Positions 7,484-23,645 of a stretch of 64,000 nucleotides of DNA are shown here, in pieces. The stretch lies in NCBI GenBank assembly GCA_030638825.1, contig DAOWDU010000031.1, positions 4,206-68,205 on the forward strand. The letters are read 5' to 3'. This DNA comes from a bacterium (GTDB taxonomy: Bacteria > Patescibacteriota > Minisyncoccia > JAHIHE01 > JAGLIN01). Numbering within the stretch: the stretch's first letter is position 1; each line of letters begins with the position of its first letter. The position numbers and the translations under genes were made by a program. A model generated the notes under the pieces. It had not been told where the DNA came from. It saw only the letters and a list, made by a program, of their open reading frames with translations, and searched no databases.

Positions 7484-7487
7484 AAAA

Positions 7488-8979: not shown

Positions 8980-9052
8980 TATTGCCTGCCTCCTTTATTT
9001 ATATTGAAGAAATTTTCCTTCTAAAAACATTTTATTATTAAAGAACAATAAT

Positions 9053-9409: not shown

Positions 9410-9436
9410 ATCTATTCTTAAATTTTAATTTATATA

Positions 9437-9577: not shown

Positions 9578-9585
9578 GTAATATT

Positions 9586-10137
9586 TTATTCAGTTGTTCC
9601 CGCCACCTTCTTCCCCACTTTTCTTCTCACCTGTTCCCCAACATATCTAATCCCCTTTCCTTTATACGGCTCTGGTTTCTTCTTGCTTCTAATATCCGCG
9701 GCGATTTGTCCAACTAATTGCTTATCTATACCTGAAATGGTAATCACATTTTTTTCAACTTTTAATTCTATTCCTTCTGGCGCTTCAAAAACAACGGGAT
9801 GGGAAAAACCAAGATTTAAAGTTATATTCTTTCCAGTTTGAGTCGCTTTATGTCCAACTCCGTGAAGTTCCAATTGCTTTTCATATCCTTTCTCAACTCC
9901 TAAAACCATATTAGCAATCAAAGCTCTTGAAAGTCCCCAAAGAGCAAGACTTTTTTTCGTTTCTTTTTTAACAGATAAAATAATTTGATTGTCTCTAATT
10001 TCAACCTGCACATTAAAATCAACCTCAAAATAAAGTTCTCCCTTTGAACCCTTAACAGAAATTCCATTCTTCTTCTCATCAAAAGAAACCGTAATCCCCG
10101 TTGGTATTTCAATTGGTTTTTTTCCTATTTTACTCAT
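9586..10137 (-). CDS. rplF: 50S ribosomal protein L6
   Basis: L6 two-domain sequence and conserved position. Confidence 0.9.
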   Translation of the reverse strand: MSKIGKKPIEIPTGITVSFDEKKNGISVKGSKGELYFEVDFNVQVEIRDNQIILSVKKETKKSLALWGLSRALIANMVLGVEKGYEKQLELHGVGHKATQTGKNITLNLGFSHPVVFEAPEGIELKVEKNVITISGIDKQLVGQIAADIRSKKKPEPYKGKGIRYVGEQVRRKVGKKVAGTTE

Positions 10138-10232
10138 AGATCATTTAAACATATAAGCATTTAAACATTTAAACAAAGTTTTGAAATCTCAACTTGTTTA
10201 TATGTTTATATGCTTAAATGCTTATATGCTAA

Positions 10233-10622
10233 TTACCATACCTCGCAAATAACTTCTCCGCCAACTCCGATTTTCTTCGCTTCTATATTCGTCATCACTC
10301 CTTTTGGCGTTGAAATAATCGCAATTCCGTAACTATTTAAAACTCTTGGGATTTTATCTTTGCCGACATAACTTCTTTGTCCTGGCTTGCTGACTCTTTG
10401 AATTTCAGAAATAGCGTAATGATTATCAACTTTTCTCAAGATAATTTCCAAAGTTATTTTCACACCTTTCTTATGCTGAAGGACATCACCAATATAACCC
10501 TCTTTTTTAAGGATCTTCGCCAGCGCCAATTTAAATTTTGACGACGGCATTTCCACGCTCAAATGATTAGCTCTCTGAGCATTTCTTATTCTCGTTAACA
10601 TATCTGCGATTGGATCTGTCAT
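10233..10622 (-). CDS. rpsH: 30S ribosomal protein S8
   Basis: MTDPIADMLTRIRNA is the canonical S8 N-terminus. Confidence 0.9.
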   Translation of the reverse strand: MTDPIADMLTRIRNAQRANHLSVEMPSSKFKLALAKILKKEGYIGDVLQHKKGVKITLEIILRKVDNHYAISEIQRVSKPGQRSYVGKDKIPRVLNSYGIAIISTPKGVMTNIEAKKIGVGGEVICEVW

Positions 10623-10736
10623 AAGCTACGAAGTTAAAAGTTTATAAAGTTATGAAGTTCTAAAGTTTATAAAGTTCTAAAGTTGAAAGTAAAGGACCTT
10701 ATGAACTTTCTACTTTATAAACTTTAGAACTTCGTC

Positions 10737-10922
10737 TTACCAGCTACTCTTCTTAATCCCTGGCAACTCGCCATTACTCGCTAGTTCTCGAAAACAAATA
10801 CGACATAAATCAAACTTTCTCATATACCCATGCTTTCTTCCGCACTTCCAACACCTTCTCACAATCCGAGTTGAGAATTTTGGTTTTTTAAGAGATTTTG
10901 CTATGAGGGCTGTTCTTGCCAT
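10737..10922 (-). CDS. rpsZ: 30S ribosomal protein S14 type Z (zinc-binding)
   Basis: It is 61 aa with a C4 motif [23 protein letters not shown]. Confidence 0.9.
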
Positions 10923-10942
10923 ATGGTTGTTTAATATGTTTA

Positions 10943-11497
10943 TTATTCTATTTTATCCACTATCGGAAATCCTAAAAGTTTTAATAATTTATATCCTTCT
11001 TCGTCCGTCTTCGCCGTTGTTGTGATATTAACTTCAAATCCGATAATATTTTTTATTGTTTCTCTGTTCACTTCTGAAAAAATGAGATGCTCTTTGATGC
11101 CAATATTAAAATTTCCATTTCTGTCAAACGCTTTCTTGCTTAATCCTCTGAAATCTCTAACCTGCGGCAAAGCGATATTAATTAATCTGTCTATAAATTC
11201 ATACATTTTCGCTCCTCTCAAAATCGCTGTCAATCCAACTGGCATTCCTTCTCTGATCTTAAATCCAGCAATCGCTTTTTTCGCTTTTGTGACAACTGGT
11301 TTCTGCCCTAAAATATTTGCCATATCTTCCTCTATTTTCTTGAAATCATCTTTGCTATCTCTCAAAATATTTCCCAAGCCAGCGTTGACAACAACTTTAG
11401 TTATCGCAGGAACAGCCATATTATTTTTATAGCCAAATTCCTTCCTCATCTCAGGAACAACTTCTTTTTTATATTTTTCTTTTAAGCGTGTTGTCAT
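10943..11497 (-). CDS. rplE: 50S ribosomal protein L5
   Basis: L5 core and operon position. Confidence 0.9.
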
Positions 11498-11520
11498 TTT
11501 AAGGTTTTAATATTATTTTA

Positions 11521-11644
11521 CTGTCATTGCGAGGAGCTCCGCAGAGCGACGAAGCAATCCCGCAACTATGTCCAATGAATTTAATCACGGGATTGCTTCG
11601 TCGCCATCTCTTCGCTACGCTCAATCGGGCTTCTCGCAATGACA
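11521..11644. mobile_element. Family-A TIR element copy
   Basis: It starts with ctgtcattgcgaggagc, contains gacgaagcaatcccgcaact...cgggattgcttcgtc, and ends with tctcgcaatgacat. Confidence 0.75.
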
Positions 11645-11670
11645 TTTCGCAATCCTAAATTATATGTCAT

Positions 11671-11997
11671 CTATTTCTCCACCTGCACATCAATATTCTC
11701 TTTGCACTTCCGACAAATCCTGTGCTTTTCTTTATTTTCCAATATCAAATATCCAACTCTTGTCTGCTTCGTGCATTTTGGACAAATCAAGGCAACATTA
11801 GAAATATTAATCGGCGCGGGAACGGTTATCTTCTGTCCTTTCTCTCCTTGCTTTCTCGCTTTAATATGCTTTTTTATAAAATTCGCGCCCTCAACAACAA
11901 CCCTGTTTTTCTCAGAAATTACTTTGATAACCTTGCCTTTTTTGCCTTTATCTTTCCCAGCAGTTATTATTACTTTGTCGTTAGTTTTGATTTTCAT
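11671..11997 (-). CDS. rplX: 50S ribosomal protein L24 with an embedded C4 zinc-ribbon
   Basis: The KOW motif KVIITAGKDKGKKGKV is present. The start was trimmed to MKIKTNDKV. The motif CPKC...x19...CRKC replaces the usual C-terminal region. Confidence 0.85.
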   Translation of the reverse strand: MKIKTNDKVIITAGKDKGKKGKVIKVISEKNRVVVEGANFIKKHIKARKQGEKGQKITVPAPINISNVALICPKCTKQTRVGYLILENKEKHRICRKCKENIDVQVEK

Positions 11998-12011
11998 AAA
12001 TGTTTTTATTT

Positions 12012-12081
12012 GGAGCAAGGGCTTTAGCCCGAAAGTGTATTAAATTAATCTATCTGACTATCGGGCTAAAGCCCTCGCTCC
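12012..12081. repeat. Family-B hairpin element (ggagcaagggctttagcccgaaag...cgggctaaagccctcgctcc)
   Basis: It is a near-perfect 25-bp inverted repeat. Other copies are at 29337-29399 and 61198-61267. Confidence 0.75.
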
Positions 12082-12083
12082 GT

Positions 12084-12458
12084 CTATAAAACCTCCGGAG
12101 CCAGCGAAACTATCTTCATAAATCCCTTATCTCTCAACTCTCTTCCAACAGGTCCGAAAATTCGAGTTGCTTTTGGCGTTATTCTGTCTTTGCTTTCAAC
12201 TACAACAGCGGCGTTATCATCAAAACGAATATACGATCCGTCTTTTCTTCTCAACGCTTTTCTTTGTCGGACAATTACTGCCTTAATAACTTCTTTCTTC
12301 TTAACCTGCCCTCTCGGTTCTGATAATTTCACAGAAGCGACAATTACATCTCCAATATAAGCATAGCGCCTTCTCGTTCCGCCAAGAACTTTAATGCACT
12401 TTATCAATTTCGCCCCCGAATTGTCCGCAATCATAAGTTTGCTTCCTTGTTGAATCAT
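12084..12458 (-). CDS. rplN: 50S ribosomal protein L14
   Basis: [17 protein letters not shown] is the canonical L14 N-terminus. Confidence 0.9.
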
Positions 12459-12540
12459 GATTTTTTAAATTTGAATTTAGTGTTTTTTATAAATAACTAT
12501 AAATTAACGACTCTTTTATTTTCTAAAATGAAATTTCTAT

Positions 12541-12813
12541 CTATTTCTCAATACTTTTCGCCACCCACTTCTTATCTTTACTAATCGGCTTAGTTTCCAT
12601 AATCATCACCTTATCCCCAATCTTAAATTCATTCCCCTCATCATGCGCTTTGTATTTCTTGCTTACTTTATACTTCTTCTTATATTTAGCATGCATCTTC
12701 AACCGATCAATTTTAACAACAACCGTCTTATCCATTTTATCACTCACAACAATGCCAACCTTGCCTTTTTTGGCGCTCTTTTTTTCTTTATTTTTTTCGT
12801 TGTCTTTATTCAT
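12541..12813 (-). CDS. rpsQ: 30S ribosomal protein S17
   Basis: The S17 OB-fold core ([16 protein letters not shown]...HDE.NE..IGD.V.I.E.KP.SK.K.W) is present. Confidence 0.85.
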
Positions 12814-12840
12814 AAATAATCTTATAGATATTGAAATAAC

Positions 12841-13041
12841 TTATTTCTTTTCCTTTAAATACCTTTCCCTTAAAATCGTCTTCGCAACCGCAATTATTTT
12901 CTTCGCTTTCTTAATCTCATTATAATCCTTCAACTGCTTATTAGTCAAAGCAAACCTAAACTCTCTCAGCTTTTCTTTATTTTCCTTAATCAAACTTTGC
13001 AATTGATTATCAGATTGTTCTCTATATTCTTTTGCCTGCAT
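12841..13041 (-). CDS. rpmC: 50S ribosomal protein L29
   Basis: It is a 66-aa helical protein beginning LREFRFAL, located between rplP and rpsQ. Confidence 0.85.
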   Translation of the reverse strand: MQAKEYREQSDNQLQSLIKENKEKLREFRFALTNKQLKDYNEIKKAKKIIAVAKTILRERYLKEKK

Positions 13042-13050
13042 ATAATTAAA

Positions 13051-13458
13051 TTATTCTTTAACAATAAACCTCGTCTTAATCGGCAACTTATGACTCGCCA
13101 GACGCATTGCCTCTTTCGCCACATCTTCTTCAATCCCTTCCATTTCAAATATAATCCTGCCTGGTTTTACAACTGCTGAGAAATGATCCAAACTTCCTTT
13201 TCCACTACCCATCGGAACTTCTGCCGCTTTTTTCGTAATTGGTTTATCAGGAAAAATTCTAATCCAGATCTTGCCGCCTCTTTGCACATATCTCGTCATC
13301 GCCCGCCTCGCCGCTTCAATTTGCCTGCTCGTAATCAAAGAAGTCGCCATCGCTTTCAAACCAAAAGACCCAAAAGCAATTTTATTGCCGCGCTGCGCCT
13401 TCCCACGCATTCTTCCCTTCATCATCTTCCTGTGTTTTACTTTTTTGGGCATCAACAT
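13051..13458 (-). CDS. rplP: 50S ribosomal protein L16
   Basis: [11 protein letters not shown]...GRMRG is the canonical L16 N-terminus. Confidence 0.9.
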
Positions 13459-13504
13459 AATCGTGCATTAAAATTAAAGCGAATTATAGATAATAATTAT
13501 TGAA

Positions 13505-13670
13505 ATATTTAAACCAACCTATTTTTTAAAGCTGTAATTTTCAATTTCTAATTTCTAATTTTTATTGAATTTCTAATTCTTTAATTTCTAATCTTAAAAC
13601 TTCAAAATTGAAAATTAATTATTGAAAATTTAATAGAAATTAGAAATTAGAAATTAGAAATTTTTTACAG
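13505..13670. repeat. AT-rich palindromic array (agaaatt / aatttct units) in the rpsC-rplP intergenic region
   Basis: Inverted arrays of aatttctaatttctaat are mirrored by attagaaattagaaatt. A similar block lies at 37501-37655. Confidence 0.6.
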
Positions 13671-14315
13671 CTATTTCTTCTCCTCAAATACCTCTCCCTT
13701 ATAAATCCAAACCTTTATCCCCACAACTCCATAAGTAGTATTAGCAACATATTTCGCAAAACTAATATCGGCTCGGATTGTTTGCAAAGGAATTTTTCCT
13801 TCGCTCAACCATTCTGTTCTTGCCATTTCTGCGCCGTCTAATCTTCCCGCTACTTCAACTTTAATCCCTTTCGCTTGTTTATTTTGCATTGTTCTTTCAA
13901 TCGCTTGTTTCAAAGTTCTTCTGAATGGAAATCTTTTTTCTAACTGTTCCGCAATTGTTTGGGCAACGAGTTTTGCGCTCAATTCGTAATTCCTGATTTC
14001 AATAATATTTATTTTAATATCCAACTTTTCATTGACCATTTTCGTCACTTCCGCTTTCAATTCTTCCACGCCAGTTCCGCCTCTGCCTATTATTATTCCC
14101 GGCCGCGCGGAATGAATATTGACCGTCAAACTATTAGACGATCTTTCAATAATAATATCTTCCACTGAAGCGCTTCTTAATTTCTTTTCCAAAAAAGTTC
14201 GCAGTTCTATGTCATTCCTTAAATACTGTTTATATTTATCCGCGTTAAACCATCTTGACTTCCAGTCATTTATAATTCCCAGTCTATGTAAAAATGGATT
14301 CACTTTTCGCGCCAT
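13671..14315 (-). CDS. rpsC: 30S ribosomal protein S3
   Basis: The KH domain and the S3 C-terminal domain are present. Confidence 0.9.
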   Translation of the reverse strand: MARKVNPFLHRLGIINDWKSRWFNADKYKQYLRNDIELRTFLEKKLRSASVEDIIIERSSNSLTVNIHSARPGIIIGRGGTGVEELKAEVTKMVNEKLDIKINIIEIRNYELSAKLVAQTIAEQLEKRFPFRRTLKQAIERTMQNKQAKGIKVEVAGRLDGAEMARTEWLSEGKIPLQTIRADISFAKYVANTTYGVVGIKVWIYKGEVFEEKK

Positions 14316-14327
14316 GTGTTTTTTAAA

Positions 14328-14660
14328 TTATTTCTTATCTAAAATTATCGTCACATTACTCGTCCTTTTATTTATCCTCGCTGATCTTCCCATTGCTCTC
14401 GGTCGCCACCTTTTCATAATTTTCCCGTCATTAACTACTATTTTTGAAATATATAAATTTTTCTCATCTAAATTAAAATTATTCTTAGCATTAGCGACAG
14501 CGGAATTTAACAACTTCAATAATAATTCTGACGATTTTTTATTAATGAATTTCAACTGCGTTTGCGCTTCTTTAATTTCCATCTTCCTAATCAAATCAAC
14601 AACCAACCTCACTTTTCGTGAAGAAACTCTCAAATGATTTAAATGTGCCTTAATTTCCAT
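14328..14660 (-). CDS. rplV: 50S ribosomal protein L22
   Basis: The L22 core and operon position support the call. Confidence 0.9.
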   Translation of the reverse strand: MEIKAHLNHLRVSSRKVRLVVDLIRKMEIKEAQTQLKFINKKSSELLLKLLNSAVANAKNNFNLDEKNLYISKIVVNDGKIMKRWRPRAMGRSARINKRTSNVTIILDKK

Positions 14661-14688
14661 GGTTGTTGTTTAAATTATTTTCTACTAC

Positions 14689-14830
14689 CTGTCATTGCGA
14701 GGAGCCCGATTGAGCATAGCGAAGAGATGGCGACGAAGCAATCCCGTGATTAAATTCATCTTGCATAGTCACGGGATTGCTTCGTCGACATTTCTCTCAC
14801 TTCGTTCGTTCAGCCTCCTCGCAATGACAG
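14689..14830. mobile_element. Family-A TIR element copy, between rpsS and rplV
   Basis: It runs from ctgtcattgcgaggagcc to cctcctcgcaatgacag and includes the internal gacgaagcaatcccgtg...acgggattgcttcgtcg palindrome. Confidence 0.75.
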
Positions 14831-15124
14831 CTACTTCTCTCCCGCTTTCTTTTCCTGATCTTTCTGCATCTTTCCGCCGTGTTTAATAAATTTCTTCGTT
14901 GGAGAAAATTCTCCCAGTTTATGTCCGACCATATCTTCTGATATAAAAACTTCAATATGTTTTTTGCCGTTGTGAACTCCAAAAGTAAAACCAACCATCT
15001 CCGGAGAAATCGTAGAATTTCTCGCCCAAGTCTTGATAACGGATTTATCTCCCGCTTTCAGCTTCTTGATTTTCTCTAATAATTTTTCGTCCACATAAGG
15101 ACCTTTTTTGAGTGATCTAGACAT
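14831..15124 (-). CDS. rpsS: 30S ribosomal protein S19
   Basis: [16 protein letters not shown] and GHKLGEF are the S19 signature. Confidence 0.9.
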
Positions 15125-15133
15125 AAATTAATT

Positions 15134-15427
15134 TTAAATGGTAGCAGAATTTGCTATTAAAAATATTAAAACAAAAATAAAACCTTGAATCAAAGACACA
15201 ACTCCTATAAATTTCATAATACGCGGTGCTTTTTTTTCGTCGTAAATATATTCAATTGTTTTAGTTTCAAGAAAATTAATTTTTTTATTATTATACTTAA
15301 GACTAAAAATAGATTTTCCCATTTTACAAAAATTTATTCCGATAAATCTATTAAAAATAATTAACAAAACACCTATTAGAATAAAGTAGCAACCTACAAA
15401 AAATAGATTATATATTATTTCATTCAT
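15134..15427 (-). CDS. Hypothetical small membrane protein (2 predicted TM helices) inserted between rplB and rpsS
   Basis: There are two hydrophobic stretches and no ribosomal homology. Confidence 0.4.
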   Translation of the reverse strand: MNEIIYNLFFVGCYFILIGVLLIIFNRFIGINFCKMGKSIFSLKYNNKKINFLETKTIEYIYDEKKAPRIMKFIGVVSLIQGFIFVLIFLIANSATI

Positions 15428-15457
15428 TAGACTATTGAAACTTATAAATAATAAATT

Positions 15458-16291
15458 TTATTCCTCATCTTTCTTCTTAATCCTAAACCTCGTCTTCGGC
15501 TTATTCTTCTTTCTTGTTTTAAATCCAAGCGCTGGTTTTCCCCATGGGGTTTTCGGATGTTTCAGTCCAATCGGCTGTCTTCCTTCTCCTCCTCCGTGCG
15601 GATGATCTACTGGATTCATCGCGCTTCCTCTAACTTGCGGTCGTTTGCCCATCCATCTTGATCTACCCGCTTTTCCGATGACGATTTTATTATGATCAAT
15701 ATTGCTAATCTGTCCGATCGTCGCAAAAGCGTCTTCAGGAATTAGTTCAACTTTTTTGGATGAAAAACTGACATAAGCAAACCCGCTTTCCAAAGCCATC
15801 ATTTTAGCGGAAGATCCAGCAGATCTTGCGATTTGGCTTCCTTTACCGGGAGTTAATTCAACATTACAGATCATCGTCCCTGCAGGGATTTTTTTCAAAG
15901 GCATTCTGTTACCAACTTTTACGGGCGCATTTTCAGAAACAATAATTTTGTCATTCTTCTTCAATCCTTCCTGCGCGACAATATATCTTTTTTCTCCATC
16001 AGCATAAGCAAGTAAAGCGATAAACGCGGTTCTATTCGGATCATATTCAATCGCCTGAACTTTTGCTGGAACATCAAGCTTGTTCATCTTAAAATCAATC
16101 AGCCTAAATCTTTTCTTCGCTCCTCCGCCTCTATGTCTGGTCGTAATTTTCCCAGCGCTCCCTCGCCCGCTTCCTCTTTTTTTCCCTTCCAGCAAACTTT
16201 TTTCTGGTTTCTTTTTATCAAGCATAGAAAAATCAGTTCCGATCATTCCTCTTCTCCCTGGCGATGTTGGTTTATATTTTTTTACTGGCAT
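15458..16291 (-). CDS. rplB: 50S ribosomal protein L2
   Basis: The motif GRNxxGxITxRHRGGG and other L2 motifs are present. Confidence 0.9.
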   Translation of the reverse strand: MPVKKYKPTSPGRRGMIGTDFSMLDKKKPEKSLLEGKKRGSGRGSAGKITTRHRGGGAKKRFRLIDFKMNKLDVPAKVQAIEYDPNRTAFIALLAYADGEKRYIVAQEGLKKNDKIIVSENAPVKVGNRMPLKKIPAGTMICNVELTPGKGSQIARSAGSSAKMMALESGFAYVSFSSKKVELIPEDAFATIGQISNIDHNKIVIGKAGRSRWMGKRPQVRGSAMNPVDHPHGGGEGRQPIGLKHPKTPWGKPALGFKTRKKNKPKTRFRIKKKDEE

Positions 16292-16301
16292 AATATTAAA
16301 T

Positions 16302-16781
16302 TTATTTCTTCTCCTTCATCACATCAATTTTATTCCCTTTCGCCAAAGTAACAATTGCTTTCTTATATCCGCTTTTCATTCCGGGCACTCCTTTGAATTT
16401 TTTTGGCTTGGAAGGAACCTTTGTAATATTGACACTTTTGACAACTACTCCGTATAAACTGGCAACCGCTTTTTTCACTTCTGATTTATTCGCTGTTGAT
16501 GAAATTACAAAAACATATTTATCCTCATTATTAAATCGCAGAGCCTTTTCTGAAATATGCGGTTTTTTTATCAACTCAAAATAATGAACAGGCATTTTCT
16601 CCCTACTAACCTTTTTCGCCTTCCCACTTTTTCCAGATGATTTGCCTTTCTTTTTCTTATCTGCTTCCTTCGCTTCTTTCTCTACTTTCTTTTCTTCTTT
16701 AACTTCTTTCTTGTCTCTCTGATCTTCTTTAACATCCTCCTTATCATCTTTCTTTTTTCTAATTTTATCTAAAATACTCAT
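16302..16781 (-). CDS. rplW: 50S ribosomal protein L23 with a roughly 60-aa Lys/Glu-rich N-terminal extension
   Basis: The C-terminal 95 aa match the L23 core (HYFELIKKPHISEKA...). Confidence 0.85.
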   Translation of the reverse strand: MSILDKIRKKKDDKEDVKEDQRDKKEVKEEKKVEKEAKEADKKKKGKSSGKSGKAKKVSREKMPVHYFELIKKPHISEKALRFNNEDKYVFVISSTANKSEVKKAVASLYGVVVKSVNITKVPSKPKKFKGVPGMKSGYKKAIVTLAKGNKIDVMKEKK

Positions 16782-16800
16782 CTTCTTTAATATTATTCTA

Positions 16801-16985
16801 CGGCACTTTAGTGCACGGTCGGTGAGGTTTTAACCTCACGCAATTTAGCTCAACACATTTCGGAACTTGGTTCTGGGTACCCAGAACCAAGTTCCGAAAT
16901 GTTGTGATATTTTAAAATTGCTTCTTTTCTCGGGAGGTTAAAACCTCACGGACCCTCGGCTAAAGCCGGGTAGAAATCATCCGAC
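16801..16985. mobile_element. Family-D TIR element (gaggttttaacctc core; ...ggctaaagccgggtagaaat terminus)
   Basis: Inverted termini enclose an internal palindrome. A larger copy lies at 29708-30068. Confidence 0.65.
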
Positions 16986-16990
16986 TAAAC

Positions 16991-17617
16991 TTACTTATAA
17001 ATCTCCCCTATCATCTCAACCCCTTTCTTATTAATAACCAAGAATTTATTCTTCAACAAATCCACCACATTCAACGAATCACTTGCCAATACCGAAACAC
17101 TAGGAATATTCTTAACTGAGTTTAAAATATTTTCATTATTCTTATCTAAAGATAATAACACTTTTCCTTTAATTGGCAAGCTCTTGAAAATATCTTTCAT
17201 TACTTTCGTAGAAGTTTTATTTATTTTTAAATCATCTACAACTATTATTTCTTCATCTTTCAGCTTTCCTGACAAAACCATAAACAACGCTTTCGTCTTC
17301 ATTTTCTTATTTACTCTCTTGCTAAAATTCCGATCAGTAGTCGGTCCAAATGTCACCCCCCCGCCTTTCCAAATCGGAGATCTGCTTGACCCATGCCTCG
17401 CTCTCCCCGTCCCTTTCTGCTTCCAAGGTTTTCTTCCCCCGCCTCTCACCTCACCCTTATCTTTCGTATCCGCCAAAACCTGCCTCGCATTCGCCATCTG
17501 CGCCACAACAACCTGATGCACCAAATCATCATTTAATTCCACACCAAAAACACTCTCCAGCAATTCCATCTCGCCACTTTCTTTCCCTTCTTGATTGTAG
17601 ATTTTAGTTTTTAGCAT
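16991..17617 (-). CDS. rplD: 50S ribosomal protein L4
   Basis: The L4 core with the GTGRAR motif (KGTGRARHGS) is present. Confidence 0.9.
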   Translation of the reverse strand: MLKTKIYNQEGKESGEMELLESVFGVELNDDLVHQVVVAQMANARQVLADTKDKGEVRGGGRKPWKQKGTGRARHGSSRSPIWKGGGVTFGPTTDRNFSKRVNKKMKTKALFMVLSGKLKDEEIIVVDDLKINKTSTKVMKDIFKSLPIKGKVLLSLDKNNENILNSVKNIPSVSVLASDSLNVVDLLKNKFLVINKKGVEMIGEIYK

Positions 17618-17654
17618 AATATTTATGAAATATTTTTACTGATTTACTTTTTTA

Positions 17655-18098
17655 CTAAATTGCATTCCATATTTCCCAACATGGAGCAAGATAGAATTCG
17701 TCTCCTATAAATAAGGGAGTATAAGCAAAAATAAAGGCAGACAAGAATACAACAAGAGTAGCAATTTTTAAATACTTCCAATCATTAGGAGAAAATAAAA
17801 TTATTTTTGATTTTACTAACACAAGTTTTACAAAAACAATTGCTAATGATATTATTATAGCTATAAATGACCAAGTAGTAAGTTTTTTGTGAACTAAATT
17901 TTCTTCAGTCGGAATCTGGACATTTTGACAAGCTTCTTTTAATTTCATACTATCGTTACCAGCATTACTGAGAAGAGTTTTATTATATTTGTTATATGTA
18001 TTCTGATAATTTACTACAAAAACTGAATTTACTATATTTAAAAATAAAGTGAAAACTACGAATAACAGAATTAAAATTTTTGTTATTTTAATTATCAT
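17655..18098 (-). CDS. Hypothetical integral membrane protein (about 4 TM)
   Basis: Hydrophobic segments. It is inserted between rplC and rplD. Confidence 0.4.
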   Translation of the reverse strand: MIIKITKILILLFVVFTLFLNIVNSVFVVNYQNTYNKYNKTLLSNAGNDSMKLKEACQNVQIPTEENLVHKKLTTWSFIAIIISLAIVFVKLVLVKSKIILFSPNDWKYLKIATLVVFLSAFIFAYTPLFIGDEFYLAPCWEIWNAI

Positions 18099-18198
18099 AA
18101 AAACAAATTGATTTAATTTGGAATGTTTAGTTTAAATATAAAAATTATGAAAAAATTGCGGAGCTTTAGCTATTCTATTAACCAAAGCCCCTATTGTC

Positions 18199-18531
18199 TT
18201 ATTTGCGAAGCCAGTTGTCATGGTCTATGTATATATCATTTTTATAATTAAAATTATACACACAATAGACATACCTCTTCGGAATCAACACTGCTGATTT
18301 ACCATTATGCGGAACCCAAAGCCAATTTTGTGGGTTCGCATCAGGATCCCCAGGAATGAAAAACAGGAAATTTAAAGGTCCTCCTGTTCCCCTTACTTCG
18401 GGATGCCAATCTGGATTATAGTCTGCGTTAAACGCTAAAGCAAAATGATCCCTATCGTCATGGAACATAAAACCATATTCTGCATATCTTGCATCGCGTG
18501 CCGATGCTGGCGCTATCATTACGCAAAACAC
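18199..18531 (-). CDS. Hypothetical protein that may be secreted; the 5' end is uncertain
   Basis: The ORF follows a signal-peptide-like stretch that an in-frame TGA interrupts; see the findings. Confidence 0.3.
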   Translation of the reverse strand: MFCVMIAPASARDARYAEYGFMFHDDRDHFALAFNADYNPDWHPEVRGTGGPLNFLFFIPGDPDANPQNWLWVPHNGKSAVLIPKRYVYCVYNFNYKNDIYIDHDNWLRK

Positions 18532-18764
18532 AGCAATCAGTAGTGTTGCTACTGCTATTGTCCTAAATCTTATTTTCTCACCTCTTTTTGTTCTTATGTC
18601 CCCAAGTCATCAAGAATAAAGCATTGTTTCATTCTTATTCTCTCTTCAGAAACAGTGAAAATTTTCTAAACTAAAATTTAAAAAACTCAACACTGTCTCT
18701 AAAAAAGTTCAAGAAGCGTATTTTTTGTTTTTTAAAAGAACATTTTTTATTTCCTTAAGATTAT

Positions 18765-19268
18765 TTAAACTCCCGATAGACAATCTCCCATCATTATCAT
18801 TCCAAACGGTTTTCCAAGAAGATCATACTGCTTACTCATTATCATAATATTTTTGTCTCTAAAAAGAGTAAAGACATTAATATTACCAAAACCAGTTTCC
18901 TCAATCAAATAAACAGTTGATCCATTGTCAATTTTTATCAAAGAGACTTCATCGCCTAAATTACCTACTATAGAAGGAACATCAGTGTCAATATCTACAA
19001 AAGTGAGCGTTGTAGATTTTTCATCAATATTAATCTCACCGCTAATATGATCTTTTTCAAAATCTGTCGTCGCTGATATTTTTAATGTGCATACAACACT
19101 ATCAGAATATGGCAACCTTGACTCTTTCCAATTTTCATTAAGAGAAATTGTCTTTTTATTATTACTAACAGGAAAATTATTTGTATGTCTATCCAAAAAT
19201 ATAACTGTGAATAAAAATGTAACTGCAATGACTACAAAAATAATTACTATTAAAAATATTTTTTTCAT
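18765..19268 (-). CDS. Hypothetical membrane-anchored protein (N-terminal TM plus an extracytoplasmic domain)
   Basis: N-terminus is MKKIFLIVIIFVVIAVTFLFTVIFL. It is inserted between rplC and rplD. Confidence 0.4.
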   Translation of the reverse strand: MKKIFLIVIIFVVIAVTFLFTVIFLDRHTNNFPVSNNKKTISLNENWKESRLPYSDSVVCTLKISATTDFEKDHISGEINIDEKSTTLTFVDIDTDVPSIVGNLGDEVSLIKIDNGSTVYLIEETGFGNINVFTLFRDKNIMIMSKQYDLLGKPFGMIMMGDCLSGV

Positions 19269-19305
19269 ATTTATAGAACTAACAAATAATATTTAATATT
19301 CACTC

Positions 19306-19944
19306 CTATTTCCCAACCACTCTAACCAACACCCCATTATTCCCTGGCACTGCCCCTTTAATTATCAACAAATTTTTCTCTTTGTCAACCTCCACAACTT
19401 CCAATCCCAACTGAGTAGACTGAACTCCGCCCATTCTGCCTGCCATCTTTCTTCCTTTGATGACATGCTCGGGATAAGCGCTCCCAATTGAGCCTGGTTT
19501 TCTGTTGCTGTGTTTTTGTCCATGCGATGCTTGCCCGCATTTGAAACCATGTCTTTTCATCACACCCTGAAATCCTTTCGCTTTTGAAACGCCTGAAATT
19601 TTTATTTTATCACCCGTCTCAAAAACAGAAGCATCTATTTTATCGCCTATTTTATATTCTACTTTTTCTTCTTTATCTTTTCCAACGCCATTTTTGTCTA
19701 ATCTAAATTCTCTCAAATGTCTAAACTTGCCAAGTTCTTTCAAATGTCCAGCTAATGGCTTATTAATTTTCTTCTTTTCTAAAAATCCAATTTGCACCGC
19801 TTTGTAGCCGTCTTTTTTTTCTGCTCTAACTTGGGTCACAACGCACGGTCCAACTTCAATCAAAGTAACAGGCACAACTTTTTTGGCGTCTTCGTTGTCA
19901 ATAAACACTTGACTCATTCCAATTTTCTTCCCAAGAATAAATTT
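19306..19944 (-). CDS. rplC: 50S ribosomal protein L3
   Basis: MKFILGKKIGMSQVF matches the L3 N-terminus, so the start was trimmed. The FQGVMKRHGF region is also present. Confidence 0.9.
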   Translation of the reverse strand, partial: KFILGKKIGMSQVFIDNEDAKKVVPVTLIEVGPCVVTQVRAEKKDGYKAVQIGFLEKKKINKPLAGHLKELGKFRHLREFRLDKNGVGKDKEEKVEYKIGDKIDASVFETGDKIKISGVSKAKGFQGVMKRHGFKCGQASHGQKHSNRKPGSIGSAYPEHVIKGRKMAGRMGGVQSTQLGLEVVEVDKEKNLLIIKGAVPGNNGVLVRVVGK

Positions 19945-20106
19945 CATTTTTTTGATTTTACAAACAAAAAACCGGACATTCAACCAATCACAACCGTTTT
20001 TATCCGATTTATAAATTGGCTAATTCAGTATACTTATTAGCATTTATTACTAGAAATTCTTGTTTTAGAAACCCAGTAATAAGCACTTAAATTAGCGTGA
20101 ATTTTC

Positions 20107-20247
20107 CTGTCATTGCGAGAAGCCCGAATGAGCGTAGCGAAGAGATGGCGACGAAGCAATCCCGTGACTATGCACAAATGGCTTAGTCACAGGATTGCTT
20201 CGTCGGCATTTCTCTCACTTCGTTCGTTTAGCCTCCTCGCAATGACA
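20107..20247. mobile_element. Family-A TIR element copy, between rpsJ and rplC
   Basis: It starts with ctgtcattgcgagaagcc and ends with cctcctcgcaatgaca. Confidence 0.75.
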
Positions 20248-20254
20248 ATTTAAT

Positions 20255-20596
20255 TTACATTTTAATCTCAACAAACACCCCAGCTGGCAGATTCAGATTT
20301 GACATGGCGTCAATTATTTTTGGATTTGGTTCAAGGATATCAATCAATCTCTTATGAACTCTCATTTCATACTGGTCCCGAGAATCTTTATGAACAAAAG
20401 TTGATTTATTGACTGTAAATTTGCTAATCTCTGTCGGCAATGGGACTGGTCCTCTAACTTCAGCGCCACTCCGAAGAGCAGTCTCTACTATTTGCTTAGC
20501 AGACTGGTCAATCACCTTATGATCATACGCCTTAATTTTTATCCGAATCTTCGGTTTAGATTCGTTTTCTTCTTCCTGCTTCTTTACTTCAGTCAT
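20255..20596 (-). CDS. rpsJ: 30S ribosomal protein S10
   Basis: The S10 core [18 protein letters not shown] follows a short acidic N-terminal extension. Confidence 0.9.
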
Positions 20597-20631
20597 TTAA
20601 GTTTGTATTTGAAATTAAAATTTTATTGTTA

Positions 20632-21171
20632 TTACATCTTCTTAAGACCCTTTAAACTTACTAATCTTACCGAACCTTCAAAATCGACAGAAGCCATATC
20701 ACCAGACACAGTACTGATTTCTCCTCTACCATGTGCAAAACCAGCTAATTTTTCTCCCAGTTCTTCCATTTTTTCATCAGTTAATTCTACACTATCGCCC
20801 TTTGCAAATTCTTCCTTTATATTTTCTACTTTATCAGATGCAAGTTCTATCTCAACTTCCTCATCAATTTCTCTAGTCGGCCAAAACCCCCCTACAATTT
20901 CTTTATTATCCTTAACTATTTCATCAAATATTTGCTTTGTTTTTATTCCCTGCGTATATAAAACTAACAAAGATCGATCTGGACTCTTTTTATAATTATA
21001 AATTTCATATACTATATCATTCTTTTTCAAATAATCCTCATAAATAGTTAGGTCATCTTTTCCAATTTGCACCATATTTCTACCTTCTAATTCTTTTCCT
21101 GTTATCATATTTTCTCTTTCTTGTTGTTCTTCTACATTATTTAATTTCTCAGGTTGTTCTCCGATTTTCAT
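20632..21171 (-). CDS. Hypothetical acidic protein between tuf and rpsJ
   Basis: Only the ORF supports it. It is 179 aa with no recognised domain. Confidence 0.35.
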   Translation of the reverse strand: MKIGEQPEKLNNVEEQQERENMITGKELEGRNMVQIGKDDLTIYEDYLKKNDIVYEIYNYKKSPDRSLLVLYTQGIKTKQIFDEIVKDNKEIVGGFWPTREIDEEVEIELASDKVENIKEEFAKGDSVELTDEKMEELGEKLAGFAHGRGEISTVSGDMASVDFEGSVRLVSLKGLKKM

Positions 21172-21221
21172 AATTTTTTCTTAAGCAATTTAAAACAAAA
21201 AATAAGAAGAAATAAATCTCC

Positions 21222-22421
21222 TTATTTTATGATCTTCGTCACAACTCCCGCTCCTACTGTTCTGCCGCCTTCTCGGATCGCGAATTTCATACCATCTTCC
21301 ATCGCCACTGACGAAATTAATTTAATTGTTAGTTTTACAGTATCTCCAGGCATAACCATTTCTGTTCCCTCTGGCAAAGCCGCTTCACCAGTTACATCGG
21401 TTGTTCTGATATAAAATTGCGGTTTATAACCTGTGAAAAATGGAGTGTGTCGTCCGCCTTCTTCTTTGGTTAGGATATAAACTTCACCTTCAAATTCGGA
21501 ATGAGGAGTGATAGATCCAGTCGCTGCCAAAACTTGCCCTCTTTCTATTTCTTCTTTTTTAATACCTCTCAACAAAACTCCCGCATTATCTCCCGCTTGC
21601 CCTCTGTCTAACTGTTTGTTGAACATTTCAATTCCAGTGATAACCACTTTTCTAGTATCTTTAATTCCAACTAATTCCACCTCATCATTAAGATTGATAA
21701 TTCCTCTTTCAATTCTTCCAGTCACAACAGTTCCTCTTCCTTCAATTGAAAAAATATCTTCAAGAGGCATCAAAAATGGTTTGTCTACATCTCTCTTCGG
21801 CTCTGGAATTTTTTCATCTAATTTTTTCACTATTTCTAAAACTGGTTTACAAGTTTCACACTCTTCTTTTCCACAACCGCATTCTACAGCCTTAAGAGCA
21901 GAACCTCTCACAATAGCAGTGTTTGCTCCGTCAAATTCGTATTTTGTTAATAGTTCTCTAATTTCCTCCTCAACAAGATCAATTAATTCAGGATCGTCAA
22001 CTTGATCAATTTTATTTATGAAAACAACAATTTCAGGAACACCAACTTGTCTCGCCAATAAAATATGTTCTCTTGTTTGAGGCATAGGACCATCTGTTGC
22101 CGCAACAACTAAAATAGCGCCGTCCATCTGAGCCGCGCCCGTAATCATATTTTTAATATAATCAGCATGTCCAGGACAATCAACATGAGCGTAATGTCTG
22201 TTGTCTGATTCATATTCCTGATGGGAAGTAGCGATTGTAATTCCTCGCTCTTTTTCTTCGGGAGCGTTATCAATATCAGCAACTCCTTTTTTAGAAGCCG
22301 CTTTTCCTGATGCTGCCAAGCACGCCAAAATCGCTGCGGTTAAAGTTGTTTTTCCATGATCAACATGTCCAATTGTTCCGACATTGACATGCGGTTTTGA
22401 TCTGTCAAATAGTTCTGCCAT
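21222..22421 (-). CDS. tuf: Elongation factor Tu
   Basis: The motifs [14 protein letters not shown], and NKID are present. A Cys4 cluster insertion is unusual. Confidence 0.95.
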
Positions 22422-22541
22422 TTTATTTTTCTCCTTTTTTATTAGAACATATAAATTTATTGCTCTAAATAAAATTAATTTTTTAAATTATATACTCAAA
22501 TTTCATTATAATACACTATCATCATTCTTGTCAAATAATTT

Positions 22542-22886
22542 TTACAATTTCTCTATCACTATCTCATCGTCATCAATAGTATCGTCACTATCTTTATCTT
22601 CTAAATCATTCTCTTCTCTAAATTTATTCTCAACCTCAAACTGTCTCACCATTCTCTCGCCCTGTTTATTTTTCCAAACATTAATATCTTTATTCACTCC
22701 CTCTACTCTTGCGGGCAATTCTTTTTTGCTGGGATTATTAATAGTCTTATCTTTCGCATCTTCAAAATCAAGATACTCATCAACATTAATAATTACCATC
22801 GTTGGCTTTCCGTCTTCCACAATAATAACTTTGCCTCCAACGATTTTTATTAATTTCTTAATCTTATCAAAACTGTTTTCTGTCAT
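22542..22886 (-). CDS. Hypothetical acidic protein. Its N-terminus weakly resembles the Phd/YefM antitoxin fold.
   Basis: GGKVIIVEDGKPTMVIINVDEY resembles antitoxin beta-strands, but the support is weak. Confidence 0.3.
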   Translation of the reverse strand: MTENSFDKIKKLIKIVGGKVIIVEDGKPTMVIINVDEYLDFEDAKDKTINNPSKKELPARVEGVNKDINVWKNKQGERMVRQFEVENKFREENDLEDKDSDDTIDDDEIVIEKL

Positions 22887-23062
22887 AGGAATTATTATTT
22901 ATACTATTTTATTTATGTGTGTAGATTAGCATAGATATTTTTTTTGTCAAATAAAAGAGTTGAAACTTATTGAAACTCGTAGAAATTAGTAGAAATTTAT
23001 TGTAGTAATTTACAATTAATTTCCACAAATTTCGCATAGCGAGTTTCCATTAATTTCCTTTT

Positions 23063-23488
23063 TTACAATTTACCCGTACTTCCAAATCCCCCATCCTCTC
23101 GTTCTGTTTTGTTTAAATCTTCCACTTCTTCAATTTCAACTCGTTCTATTTTCTGAATTAAGATCTGCGCTATTTTGGTATTTTTTTCAACTAAATAATC
23201 TTCGTCTCCCAAATTGATTAGAACAATAATTATTTCTCCCCTATAACTTGAGTCAATAACACCAGCCATCGTTTTCATTCCGTGTTTAGTTGCCAAACCG
23301 CTTTTATCCCAGATAAGCCCGACATAACCGCTTGGAATTTCCATTTTTATACCAGTTAAAAATCCTTTTCGTTCTCCTGATTTCAAATTATAACCTTCCT
23401 CCGCTGAATAAATATCAAGTCCTGCGTCGCCTTCGTGCGCATAATTCGGAGTTTTTACTTCTTTAATTTTCTGGATTTTTATTTTCAT
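23063..23488 (-). CDS. dut: dUTP diphosphatase
   Basis: The dUTPase motifs AGLDIY, IPSGYVGLIWDKSGLA, and GVIDSSYRGEI are present. Confidence 0.85.
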   Translation of the reverse strand: MKIKIQKIKEVKTPNYAHEGDAGLDIYSAEEGYNLKSGERKGFLTGIKMEIPSGYVGLIWDKSGLATKHGMKTMAGVIDSSYRGEIIIVLINLGDEDYLVEKNTKIAQILIQKIERVEIEEVEDLNKTEREDGGFGSTGKL

Positions 23489-23498
23489 ACATATAAAT

Positions 23499-23638
23499 TG
23501 TCATTGCGAGGAATGAAGTTGAGCGATAGCGAAACGGAATGACGAAGCAATCCCGTAACTATGTCTAGTGAATTTAATCACGGGATTGCTTCGTCGCCTT
23601 CTCTTCGCTACGCTCATTCGGGCTCCTCGCAATGACAG
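23499..23638. mobile_element. Family-A TIR element copy, between fusA and dut
   Basis: It runs from ttgtcattgcgaggaatgaagttgagcg to ggctcctcgcaatgacag. Confidence 0.75.
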
Positions 23639-23645
23639 TAATAAT

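Follow-up and report, generated by a model that had tools for sequence, protein, structure and literature searches.

Probable accessory genes, mostly for predicted envelope proteins, at junctions of the S10 and spc ribosomal operons in an uncultured Paceibacteria bacterium

In well-studied bacteria it is unusual for the S10 or spc operon to contain insertions. The native non-ribosomal genes of the spc operon are secY, adk and map; of these, secY (Cerretti 1983, as cited in PMC9297842) is a membrane-protein gene co-oriented, and presumably co-transcribed, with the ribosomal protein genes. The nearest described parallel to the locus reported here is a set of insertions in the conserved ribosomal gene cluster. 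According to the available text of that study, a few unrelated genes lie between cluster genes, are lineage-specific and are not kept in all descendants, with duplication, transposition or horizontal transfer from close relatives as suspected causes (Brandis 2021, PMC8046335). These events fall mainly between the operons of the cluster (rpoBC-str and str-S10), in Gammaproteobacteria and Bacilli (PMC8046335, same text).

The window analysed here (the whole stretch of 64,000 nucleotides) comes from an uncultured Paceibacteria (CPR) bacterium and carries extra genes between its ribosomal protein genes. The original prediction placed five such ORFs inside the S10/spc cluster, and coordinates, strand and flanking genes are all confirmed. 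The five lie on the minus strand, in the same orientation as the genes for S10, L3, L4, L23, L2, S19 … L18, S5. A further ORF overlooked at that stage, orf179, belongs to the same insertion pattern.

20632-21171, minus strand: orf179, acidic soluble orphan between EF-Tu and S10; coding score 0.353 bits/codon
19306-19947, minus strand: rplC (L3), bordering the three-gene insert upstream; the identical gene in L081 and L083 carries Pfam Ribosomal_L3
18765-19268, minus strand: orf167, N-terminally membrane-anchored, with an 8-stranded beta-barrel domain; Patescibacteria lipoprotein family
18199-18573, minus strand: orf110, small secreted protein, signal peptide ending VMIAPASA/RD; counted from an in-frame ATA at 18573
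17655-18098, minus strand: orf147, membrane protein with three TM segments, partner of orf110
16991-17617, minus strand: rplD (L4), downstream flank of the three-gene insert; Pfam Ribosomal_L4
15458-16291, minus strand: rplB (L2), upstream flank of orf97; Pfam Ribosomal_L2_N/C
15134-15427, minus strand: orf97, protein with two TM segments, widespread uncharacterised family
14831-15124, minus strand: rpsS (S19), downstream flank of orf97; Pfam Ribosomal_S19
8797-8979, minus strand: orf60, small soluble orphan between L18 and S5

Spacing at the borders is tight: 37 nt from L3 to orf167 and from orf147 to L4, 30 nt from L2 to orf97 and 9 nt from orf97 to S19. A dUTPase gene and orf114, also missed at first, lie between EF-G and EF-Tu. 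Three contigs match the window at 99.89-99.98% identity, one from an NCBI MAG and two from ENA metagenomes. An independent contig (L082, 99.9% identical) runs across all the S10-operon junctions in question, from L3 to S17, and its gene calls include Pfam Ribosomal_L4, L23, L2_N/C, S19, L22, S3_C, L16, L29 and S17; L081 and L083 contribute the S10, L3 and EF-Tu calls. At the S10-operon junctions from L3 to S17 the insertions are not an assembly artefact; the L18-S5 junction with orf60 lies outside the matching independent contigs.

Synteny comparison, proposed in the original prediction, finds the insertions lineage-specific, but the genes change position and elsewhere sit mostly outside ribosomal operons. 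In a close relative (L096), whose ribosomal proteins are 84-95% identical to those of the window, orf110 and orf147 lie together at the L18-S5 junction, and further small ORFs are found at S17-L14 and L15-SecY. In L095 the order is L3, orf82, an orf147 homologue, the hairpin element X described below and an Amidase_6 gene. In L098 and L001, the relatives next in distance (L4 66-68% identical), the operons are compact. Across 157 other S10/spc loci, mostly from Patescibacteria, HMM searches found no member of the orf167, orf147 or orf97 families, and tblastn none of orf110. The window ORFs are confined to one narrow lineage, shift position and have homologues elsewhere in other genomes, whereas secY is universal and fixed in position.

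The expectation that such insertions are unusual, sound for well-studied bacteria, needs a caveat for Patescibacteria, where they recur. Gaps longer than 600 bp are found at L2-S19 in 19 of 117 loci, at S10-L3 in 8 of 129, at L5-S14 in 5 of 82 and at L3-L4 in 3 of 149. Unrelated cargo, toxin-antitoxin genes among it, appears repeatedly at the L2-S19, S10-L3 and L3-L4 junctions across the surveyed loci; junction cargo includes MNT/HepT, SocA, HicA, Fic, MazF, DgkA, an HD-domain protein and an rve transposase. The locus differs from the events in the available text of PMC8046335: a single genome has insertions at four or more junctions in and around the S10 and spc operons, the cargo consists of small uncharacterised envelope proteins, content varies between close relatives and the same junctions are filled repeatedly across Patescibacteria. 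A search of the insert borders in the window found no transposase, recombinase, target-site duplication or flanking repeat.

Topology prediction agrees with the original description, giving two hydrophobic segments for orf97, three for orf147 and one, N-terminal, for orf167. The orf167 family (36 homologues, dN/dS 0.14-0.18) has a lipobox and a conserved Cys pair; the lipobox Cys is lost in the window copy. Its fold recalls avidins, lipocalins/FABPs and the C-terminal barrels of neisserial NHBA, fHbp, TbpB and HpuA, also small 8-stranded beta-barrel (lipo)proteins, but sequence identity is only 2-15% and the window copy, unlike these, is TM-anchored and not lipidated. Searches of Pfam and NCBIfam gave no match for orf167, nor did a profile search of PDB sequences. 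In the handful of contexts inspected (most homologues are on short contigs), the surroundings of orf167 homologues are mutually unrelated and often island-like: after IleRS, an aldehyde dehydrogenase or TRCF, in methylase/HNH or KAP-NTPase/PIN/HicA islands, and between a TilS-type gene and a HigB-like toxin gene. The orf97 family comprises 52 cluster representatives at E<=1e-3 (7 at E<=1e-10), is conserved over its full length and shares the motifs G-x-x-F-C-[KR]-x-G-K and Y-D-E-x-x-A-P. Two of its homologues could be placed, both outside ribosomal operons and adjoining AIRS-family or NYN genes.

The orf110 and orf147 genes form, with two hairpins, a module of roughly 1.1 kb.

18642-18706, minus strand: element X, conserved sense-strand hairpin, about 65 nt, preceding orf110
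18570-18610, minus strand: 5' leader of orf110 with a 10-codon uORF, ATG at 18610 to TGA at 18580-18578, read from sequence
18160-18191, minus strand: terminator-like hairpin between orf110 and orf147, 13 pairs and then GCAATTTTTT, from a terminator scan

The orf110 ORF, first delimited as 18199-18531, is real and coding, but its 5' end was misplaced: homologues have an N-terminal signal peptide (e.g. P0038, MKPNKTRTIVVAALLLTLLCVMIAPVSA, 74% identical over 99% of the extended query), and the frame extends upstream. The first canonical start is the GTG at 18531; upstream of it the frame stays open to 18606 but offers no start candidates other than in-frame ATA codons, of which that at 18573-18571 is better placed. 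The uORF stop overlaps, as GTGA, the ancestral orf110 start GTG (18581-18579), which in the window is out of frame with the body of the gene (GTG AGA AAA TAA). By alignment, relatives start at an in-frame TTG (L096 and L179, 82% and 74% identical) or at Met (P0038). The leader sequence is the same in three independent contigs. Three homologues of orf110 were found; its dN/dS is 0.16. An extracytoplasmic location is predicted for both orf167, from the lipobox and Cys pair of its family, and orf110, from the signal peptide of its homologues.

Element X folds at -28.1 kcal/mol (z -5.5) in the sense direction against -8.5 (z -1.0) in the antisense; its 28 pairs include 2 compensatory ones, and several G-U pairs occur. 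It is single-copy per genome and gene-linked: in L096 and L179/L180 it precedes orf110 homologues and, in L095, a signal-peptide Amidase_6 gene. The terminator-like hairpin (-18 kcal/mol, z -4.3) has a counterpart followed by a T-run at the equivalent position in L179, and L096 has a matching hairpin; in the window it could interrupt read-through before L4. The orf147 family has 15 homologues (56-80% identical, except for one identical entry, a shorter NCBI call of the window gene), with dN/dS 0.38-0.52. It is paired with an orf110 homologue in L096, L179, L180 and L181, and has a tandem paralogue in L179. Gene callers differ on the starts of both orf110 and orf147. The module lies at L3-L4 in the window, at L18-S5 in L096 and outside the ribosomal cluster in L179 and L180, where the gene on one side is divergently oriented (in L180 it encodes an FAD oxidoreductase) and small ORFs lie on the other; an NYN gene and PriA follow beyond it in L179. 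Three related genomes (window, L095, L096) carry the orf147 family inside the ribosomal cluster, which may reflect a selected association with high or growth-coupled expression.

What would such a module do? It is possible, though unlikely, that element X, orf110, the terminator and orf147 make up a self-contained mobile effector module whose residence in a ribosomal operon is incidental. orf110 would then be a secreted antagonist or host-interaction protein, orf147 its cognate membrane immunity or receptor protein, and X a 5'-UTR element controlling stability or translation. The pair stays together in four or more genomic settings, which represent three kinds of site, X also precedes a secreted hydrolase of the cell-wall type in L095, its strand asymmetry and compensatory pairs fit an RNA element, the internal hairpin is conserved, and orf147 evolves fast and has been found in tandem. 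As in bacteriocin-immunity pairs, a small secreted-protein gene precedes a small polytopic membrane-protein gene, inherited as a unit at variable loci. The resemblance is in layout only: sequence and fold comparisons give no match to bacteriocin, toxin or immunity families, the signal is of Sec type and not a double-glycine leader, no transporter or processing gene adjoins, the structure model of orf110 failed (pLDDT 43), and the window copy has no in-frame canonical start at its homologous position.

Large palindromic repeats, overlooked in the original prediction, fill most intergenic spacers of the ribosomal cluster.

20106-20247, no strand: family A copy in the S10-L3 spacer, -86 kcal/mol, z -12.9 (blastn self-comparison)
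9438-9580, 11520-11644, 14688-14829, 23499-23638, 3566-3636, 31014-31139, 59608-59740, 61798-61939: other family A copies (blastn self-comparison)
16840-16985, no strand: palindromic element in the L4-L23 spacer, -63 kcal/mol, z -8.1; related copies at about 29710-30068
8629-8702, no strand: palindromic element between orf60 and S5, -46.8 kcal/mol, z -9.5; related copy 2308-2354

Like REP/BIME elements and MITEs such as Correia, RUP and BOX, they are palindromic, strictly intergenic and form very stable hairpins within operons. They are, however, 100-145 bp long with folding energies down to -86 kcal/mol, against 20-40 bp in classical REPs, and have no identified terminal inverted repeats, target-site duplications or cognate transposase. 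REPs modulate mRNA stability and termination, according to the available text of PMC3733652. Element X differs from all these repeats in being single-copy and tied to a gene.

Could the ORFs be decaying remnants, or spurious frames in the AT-rich spacers of a degenerating operon? The displaced start of orf110, the lost lipobox Cys of orf167, the discordant start calls, the crowding of the spacers with selfish-looking palindromes and the failure to find a homologue of orf60 or orf179 in any fetched locus would fit such a reading. Coding potential, which the original prediction had left in question, is nevertheless present. A codon-phase Markov model makes the annotated frame by far the best of six, and the only coding-like one, in all six inserted ORFs, orf179 included; four have conserved homologues (36 for orf167, 15 for orf147, 52 for orf97 and 3 for orf110), with full-length conservation; and dN/dS is 0.14-0.52 across the three with comparable coding sequence (orf167, orf110, orf147). 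Internal stops and frameshifts are absent, the orf110 5' end excepted, and, judging from composition, ORFs of this length free of AT-rich stop codons are improbable by chance at 21-31% GC. Even for orf60, a singleton cluster annotated as hypothetical, the annotated frame reaches 0.145 bits/codon, more than any of the 57 shadow ORFs, and the five alternative frames score about -0.6 to -1.2; the gene also has a canonical AAGGAGG Shine-Dalgarno 8 nt upstream of its ATG. That some or all of the ORFs are non-functional is thus quite improbable. GC3 is 0.14-0.21 in five of the six, below the 0.26-0.45 range of the ribosomal genes, and 0.32 in orf110; besides foreign origin, membrane-protein composition or low expression may account for it.

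The original suggestion was that these proteins act as ribosome-associated or membrane-tethering factors specific to the lineage, for example anchoring translating ribosomes at the membrane near SecY. It is the least probable reading and a very improbable one. In its favour, the ORFs share the orientation of the ribosomal genes and are packed closely among them, the membrane proteins orf97 and orf147 have loops that could face the cytoplasm, orf147 recurs in three ribosomal clusters and secY is a precedent. Against it, homologues of orf167, orf97 and one orf110/orf147 lineage lie in non-ribosomal contexts, the four families are absent from the 157 other loci, position shifts between close relatives, the next relatives' operons are compact, no inserted protein is basic or RNA-binding-like, and orf167 and orf110, as predicted extracytoplasmic proteins, could therefore not contact ribosomes.

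The likely reading is that these are accessory genes, mostly of the envelope, that turn over rapidly in a ribosomal super-operon tolerant of insertions. They look like movable genes and not ribosome parts because their relatives elsewhere are mostly outside ribosomal operons. The direction of insertion is inferred, as is any benefit: the genes would have moved into intergenic junctions of the str-S10-spc super-operon in the recent past, within a single narrow lineage of Paceibacteria, and would hitch-hike on read-through from strong constitutive ribosomal promoters. Such expression is probable since the genes are co-oriented and tightly spaced and most lack a terminator of their own; orientation and spacing likewise suggest co-transcription. 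The two-gene module, a putative Sec-type secreted protein of about 100 aa and a membrane protein with three TM segments, would arrive with its own RNA hairpin and internal terminator-like hairpin. Selection against operon interruption appears relaxed in this lineage and, more weakly, across Patescibacteria; the junctions gather and swap cargo and palindromic repeats.

The str-S10-spc cluster lies on the minus strand of the window (~6200 to 25700), in the DNA of a low-GC (about 0.35) bacterium. From the str to the S10 part the order is EF-G, dUTPase, orf114, EF-Tu, orf179, S10, L3, orf167, orf110, orf147, L4, L23 and L2, and it continues after L2 with orf97, S19, L22, S3, L16, L29, S17, L14, L24, L5, S14, S8, L6, L18, orf60, S5, L15 and SecY, the ribosomal genes being identified by Pfam hits on gene calls of contigs 99.9% identical to the window. 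All five inserted ORFs named in the original prediction are present, with orf179 as a sixth:

20632-21171, minus strand, orf179, between EF-Tu and S10
18765-19268, minus strand, orf167, after L3
18199-18573, minus strand, orf110, between orf167 and orf147
17655-18098, minus strand, orf147, before L4
15134-15427, minus strand, orf97, between L2 and S19
8797-8979, minus strand, orf60, between L18 and S5

The topology described earlier is borne out, with two hydrophobic segments in orf97, three in orf147 and a single N-terminal one in orf167. An ORF does exist at 18199-18531, where orf110 was first placed, but as listed it is truncated at the 5' end, its homologues carrying a signal peptide. In the MAG GCA_023138945.1 the exact proteins are annotated as "hypothetical protein [Candidatus Pacebacteria bacterium]".

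The str region is also interrupted (20632-25721), with EF-G, dUTPase (23063-23488), orf114 (22542-22886), EF-Tu, orf179 and S10 in succession. Directly upstream of EF-G are an AlaX-like gene and a 58-aa ORF, with no rpsL or rpsG there. The L30 gene is absent between S5 and L15 (gap of 69 nt), which is usual for CPR bacteria (PMC9297842). L23 (16302-16781) has a Lys/Glu-rich N-terminal extension of ~65 aa, and S5 (7986-8576) has Lys-rich tails at the N- and C-terminus. Elsewhere in the window, the minus strand holds a cobalamin riboswitch aptamer (55683-55852), just above threshold in Rfam (33.2 bits against a gathering value of 31.5).

The insertions into the S10 operon are not a product of mis-assembly, because the matching contig L082 reads through each junction concerned, from L3 through S17. 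Identity with the window is 99.89-99.98% for three contigs, one from an NCBI MAG and two from ENA metagenomes; the L18-S5 junction, where orf60 is found, lies beyond the reach of all three. Each of these independent contigs has 2-8 differences from the window, all of them outside the inserted ORFs, and SNPs within the population are therefore uninformative on selection.

Are the inserts genuine genes? When a codon-phase Markov model is trained on 34 long window ORFs, with 57 "shadow" ORFs as the null, the own frame of each inserted ORF scores far above the other five, and orf60 (0.145 bits per codon) lies above 57 of 57 shadow ORFs. Homologues number 36 for orf167 (41-87% identity) and 15 for orf147 (56-80%, not counting the window gene itself in an identical, shorter NCBI version), and those of orf110 are 74-82% identical. 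For orf97, 52 cluster representatives match at E<=1e-3 and keep the motifs G-x-x-F-C-K/R-x-G-K and Y-D-E-x-x-A-P. Pairwise dN/dS is 0.14-0.18 for orf167, 0.16 for orf110 and 0.38-0.52 for orf147, with 0.03-0.08 for the neighbouring ribosomal genes and SecY. Homologues of orf60 and orf179 were found in none of the searchable loci; coding periodicity is evident in both, and a Shine-Dalgarno sequence, AAGGAGG, precedes the ATG of orf60 by 8 nt (8980-9000). By contrast with this canonical site, the sequence upstream of L2, L3, L4 and S19, read by eye, contains no obvious Shine-Dalgarno. The original prediction hinged on coding potential, which own-frame scores support for all the inserts, homologues for four of them and dN/dS below 1 for three.

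What are such genes doing in a ribosomal cluster? We consider it probable that they are accessory genes, mostly for envelope proteins, that entered a ribosomal super-operon unusually permissive in this lineage; they would be co-transcribed with their neighbours and expressed by read-through. Searches of Pfam, NCBIfam, PADLOC and PHROGs with all inserted ORFs give no match above the curated threshold, and the sub-threshold matches (DUF998, 20.4 bits against a cut-off of 30; DUF5362; AbiH) are driven by hydrophobic stretches. The inserted ORFs have no match among type II toxin-antitoxin families, which are common as cargo at such junctions elsewhere in Patescibacteria. Viral contigs scanned for orf167, orf147 and the motif of the hairpin upstream of orf110 (element X) contain none of them, so there is no sign of a phage origin.

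Most members of the orf167 family open with a lipoprotein signal (MKKI…L-x-G-C), and two cysteines are kept in all of them (residues C60 and C163 of the window copy). The window protein reads ...VIFLDRHTNN at this point, without the lipobox Cys. Since …FLDRHTNN replaces the lipobox and the hydrophobic stretch is longer, the protein is predicted to be a TM-anchored derivative; lacking [LVI]-x-[GAS]-C, it was rejected as an SPase II-type lipoprotein, for which the family itself qualifies. The family profile has no match among PDB sequences. Homologues occur in the following settings:

Contexts of orf167 homologues in other contigs
L084: after IleRS
L086: after aldehyde dehydrogenase
L088: after TRCF
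L089-L092: amid hypotheticals with DNA methylases and an HNH protein
L093: adjoining KAP NTPase, PIN and HicA genes
L094 (81% identical): between a TilS-type gene and a HigB-like toxin gene

The homologues from L086 (P0017) and L088 (P0032), together with P0024, P0034 and P0036, carry W in place of the family's G, and when they are read with table 11 their frames are interrupted by TGA; genetic code 25 (Gracilibacteria type) is probably used by their hosts. Through such hosts the orf167 family probably spans several classes of Patescibacteria. Both orf97 homologues that could be placed are likewise in non-ribosomal contexts (L097; L178, 61% identity by tblastn).

Positional turnover is seen for orf110 and orf147, the former a W/Y/N/D-rich domain of ~100 aa predicted to be secreted (its structure model, built from three sequences only, has a pLDDT of 43 and is unusable). 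Around them, the following elements form a module:

18642-18706, minus strand, element X, a hairpin of ~65 nt with 28 predicted pairs
18199-18573, minus strand, orf110
18160-18191, minus strand, a 13-pair hairpin followed by GCAATTTTTT, predicted to be an intrinsic terminator
17655-18098, minus strand, orf147

With L4 as query, genome and metagenome collections yielded nothing closer than 66-68% identity; the close relatives L095 and L096 were reached through their orf147 homologues. In the JGI contig L096, which shares 84-95% identity with the window in its ribosomal proteins and SecY, homologues of orf110 (82%) and orf147 (60%) are adjacent between L18 and S5, where the window has orf60. Nucleotide homology extends over ~1.1 kb, starting 2-6 nt past the L18 stop in L096 and about 50 nt past the orf167 stop in the window, and ending about 35 nt past the orf147 stop. 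Neither remnants of the module at the L18-S5 spacer of the window nor target-site duplications at the module borders were recognised. L095 opens with the last 10 codons of L3 (NGVLVRVVGK; 27/29 nt identical), followed by an 82-aa membrane ORF, an orf147 homologue (77%), X, a signal-peptide Amidase_6 gene and another ORF. The window, L095 and L096 thus represent three related genomes with differing cargo in the ribosomal cluster, and further evidence of turnover comes from small ORFs of L096 that the window lacks, at S17-L14 (72 aa, 2274-2492) and L15-SecY (99 aa, 8142-8441). The orf110/orf147 pair also occurs outside any ribosomal cluster in L179 and L180, and in the short contig L181, which has no flanking genes; in L179 a distant tandem paralogue of orf147 (2062-2511; HMM E 4e-12) directly follows the pair. 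In the next closest relatives found, L098 and L001 (L4 at 66-68% identity), the operons are compact: L3 and L4 are 44-46 nt apart in each, and the L2-S19 spacer of L098 measures 121 nt.

Element X has a folding energy of -28.1 kcal/mol (z -5.5) on the gene strand, against -8.5 (z -1.0) on the opposite strand, an asymmetry shared by L096 and L179. Two of its pairs show compensatory changes and several are G-U, which together with the asymmetry points to an RNA-level structure in the transcript. Among 50 sources searched with a covariance model, X was found in five known places only. One of them precedes the Amidase_6 gene (a putative cell-wall amidase) downstream of L3 in L095 (1042-1617), so that X may be a leader common to genes for secreted proteins. 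A sigma-70 promoter (TTGAGT-N16-TAGAAA) fits the window and was rejected as the primary explanation because the spacer is 12 nt in L096. An integron attC site was rejected as well, X being a single copy 5' of orf110 only, paired via G-U on the sense RNA strand; downstream of orf147, the window, L096 and L179 all lack another copy of X. L096 and L179 have counterparts of the terminator-like hairpin between the two genes, at the matching position, and in the alignment or fold ACAATTTT(T) comes next.

It is conceivable, though unlikely, that orf110 and orf147 encode a mobile secreted effector and its membrane partner with an RNA leader of their own. What suggests it is the gene layout, the one respect in which they resemble bacteriocin and immunity pairs; the bacteriocin and immunity reading finds no homology in the family libraries.

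Partial decay of the inserts takes up the probability that is left, and orf110 is the clearest candidate. The homologue P0038 starts with the signal peptide MKPNKTRTIVVAALLLTLLCVMIAPVSA followed by TD, and a matching peptide, …RFRTIAVATLLIAVFCVMIAPASA followed by RD, is in frame in the window with no canonical start codon ahead of it. The start that opens this peptide is TTG in L096 and L179 and Met in P0038. The homologous GTG of the window (18581-18579) reads GTG AGA AAA TAA, out of frame with the gene body, as there is a net 1-nt shift relative to L096 immediately after the start codon. Translation could reach the body frame only by starting at the ATA codon 18573-18571 or by slipping -1 on A-AAA. 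The leader (18570-18610) also holds a uORF of 10 codons, whose TGA shares bases with the ancestral GTG start (GTGA). In this region all three independent contigs have the sequence of the window. The window orf110 may be a very recent pseudogene or use non-canonical initiation.

A survey covered 157 S10/spc loci collected with L4 as bait, mostly from Patescibacteria and some from Firmicutes:

Gaps of more than 600 bp at junctions of the surveyed loci
L2-S19: 19 of 117 loci, the most often occupied junction
S10-L3: 8 of 129
L5-S14: 5 of 82
L3-L4: 3 of 149 (8 with more than 300 bp)
EF-Tu-S10: 3 of 111
S8-L6: 1 of 74
L18-S5: 0 of 74

Among named genomes, the L2-S19 gaps are mostly in Nomura-, Vogel-, Campbell- and Paceibacteria-type MAGs. 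Pfam-checked cargo comprises MNT/HepT with an HD protein and SocA/Panacea at L3-L4, DgkA (twice), HicA, Fic and MazF at L2-S19, and an rve transposase at S10-L3. The two DgkA genes (diacylglycerol kinase, a small membrane enzyme; L020 4369-4770 and L034 4304-4720) belong to Paceibacteria-type genomes. Insertion into the S10 operon is therefore recurrent in the phylum, with heterogeneous cargo, and recurrent "soft" junctions may, to judge by the survey, be a feature of the Patescibacteria as a whole. In Gammaproteobacteria and Bacilli, documented insertion events are mostly between operons, according to PMC8046335. In the open-access literature no description of S10-operon insertions in CPR bacteria was found.

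No member of the orf167, orf147 and orf97 families (HMM) or of orf110 (tblastn) occurs in the 157 surveyed loci. Comparative synteny does not tie the families to ribosomal loci, their positions varying among relatives. The proposal that the inserts are lineage-specific ribosome-associated or membrane-tethering factors is highly improbable, since the absence from these loci and the mostly non-ribosomal contexts of homologues speak against a role dedicated to the ribosome, the operons of the closest outgroups are compact, and a lipobox or signal peptide with a conserved Cys pair predicts a non-cytoplasmic location for orf167 and orf110, away from ribosome contact. The inserts do not reveal a new ribosome component; the arrangement is a real, somewhat unusual one of conserved hypothetical genes.

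Nearly every long spacer of the cluster also holds a large palindrome:

Palindromes of the window
3566-3636, family A
9438-9580, family A
11520-11644, family A
14688-14829, family A
20106-20247, family A
23499-23638, family A
31014-31139, family A
59608-59740, family A
61798-61939, family A
8629-8702, orf60-S5, unrelated to family A
10150-10228, S8-L6, unrelated to family A
10654-10733, S14-S8, unrelated to family A
13535-13663, S3-L16, unrelated to family A
16840-16985, L4-L23, unrelated to family A

Copies of family A, of which the 64 kb contain nine, measure 100-145 bp and fold into hairpins at about -86 kcal/mol (z -11 to -13); they are dispersed, intergenic and palindromic, as in repeats of the REP/MITE type, X not included. 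Five of them lie in cluster spacers (EF-G-dut, S10-L3, S19-L22, L24-L5 and L6-L18). Some of the unrelated palindromes are copied elsewhere in the window (about 29710-30068, 37503-37655, 2308-2354 and 34568-34644). At gathering and permissive thresholds, Rfam gives only sub-threshold miRNA-like matches on the palindromes, and no known ribosomal leader or riboswitch in the ribosomal-cluster region. If transcribed, the palindromes would form strong double-stranded RNA segments in the polycistronic message.

More tentatively, the Paceibacteria-type CPR super-operon may be a permissive landing and expression platform, whose junctions (L2-S19, S10-L3 and L3-L4; in this lineage L18-S5 and EF-Tu-S10) capture and exchange cargo such as envelope proteins and toxin-antitoxin modules, along with giant palindromes. 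The 1.1-kb unit of X, orf110, terminator and orf147 might then move by a recombinase-independent route, and could encode an unrecognised secreted effector and membrane partner acting between episymbiont and host or between competitors.

The S10/spc order is treated as a near-universal constant in phylogenomic marker extraction, in binning checks and in textbook accounts of how selection shapes operon structure. A CPR lineage in which this cluster tolerates as many as six foreign ORFs, along with numerous highly stable hairpins, bears on how ribosomal protein stoichiometry is kept where regulation is reduced, and matters for annotation pipelines built on the assumption of contiguity. Insertions of this lineage-specific kind into the conserved ribosomal cluster are known; here they take the form of soft CPR junctions, a relocating hairpin-led module and giant palindromes. 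The conserved uncharacterised families concerned are the orf167 lipoproteins (a putative 8-stranded, calycin-like beta-barrel), orf97 with its FCKxGK and YDExxAP motifs, and orf110/orf147 with their RNA hairpin. As constitutively expressed envelope proteins of uncultured episymbionts, such products would be candidate host-interaction factors.
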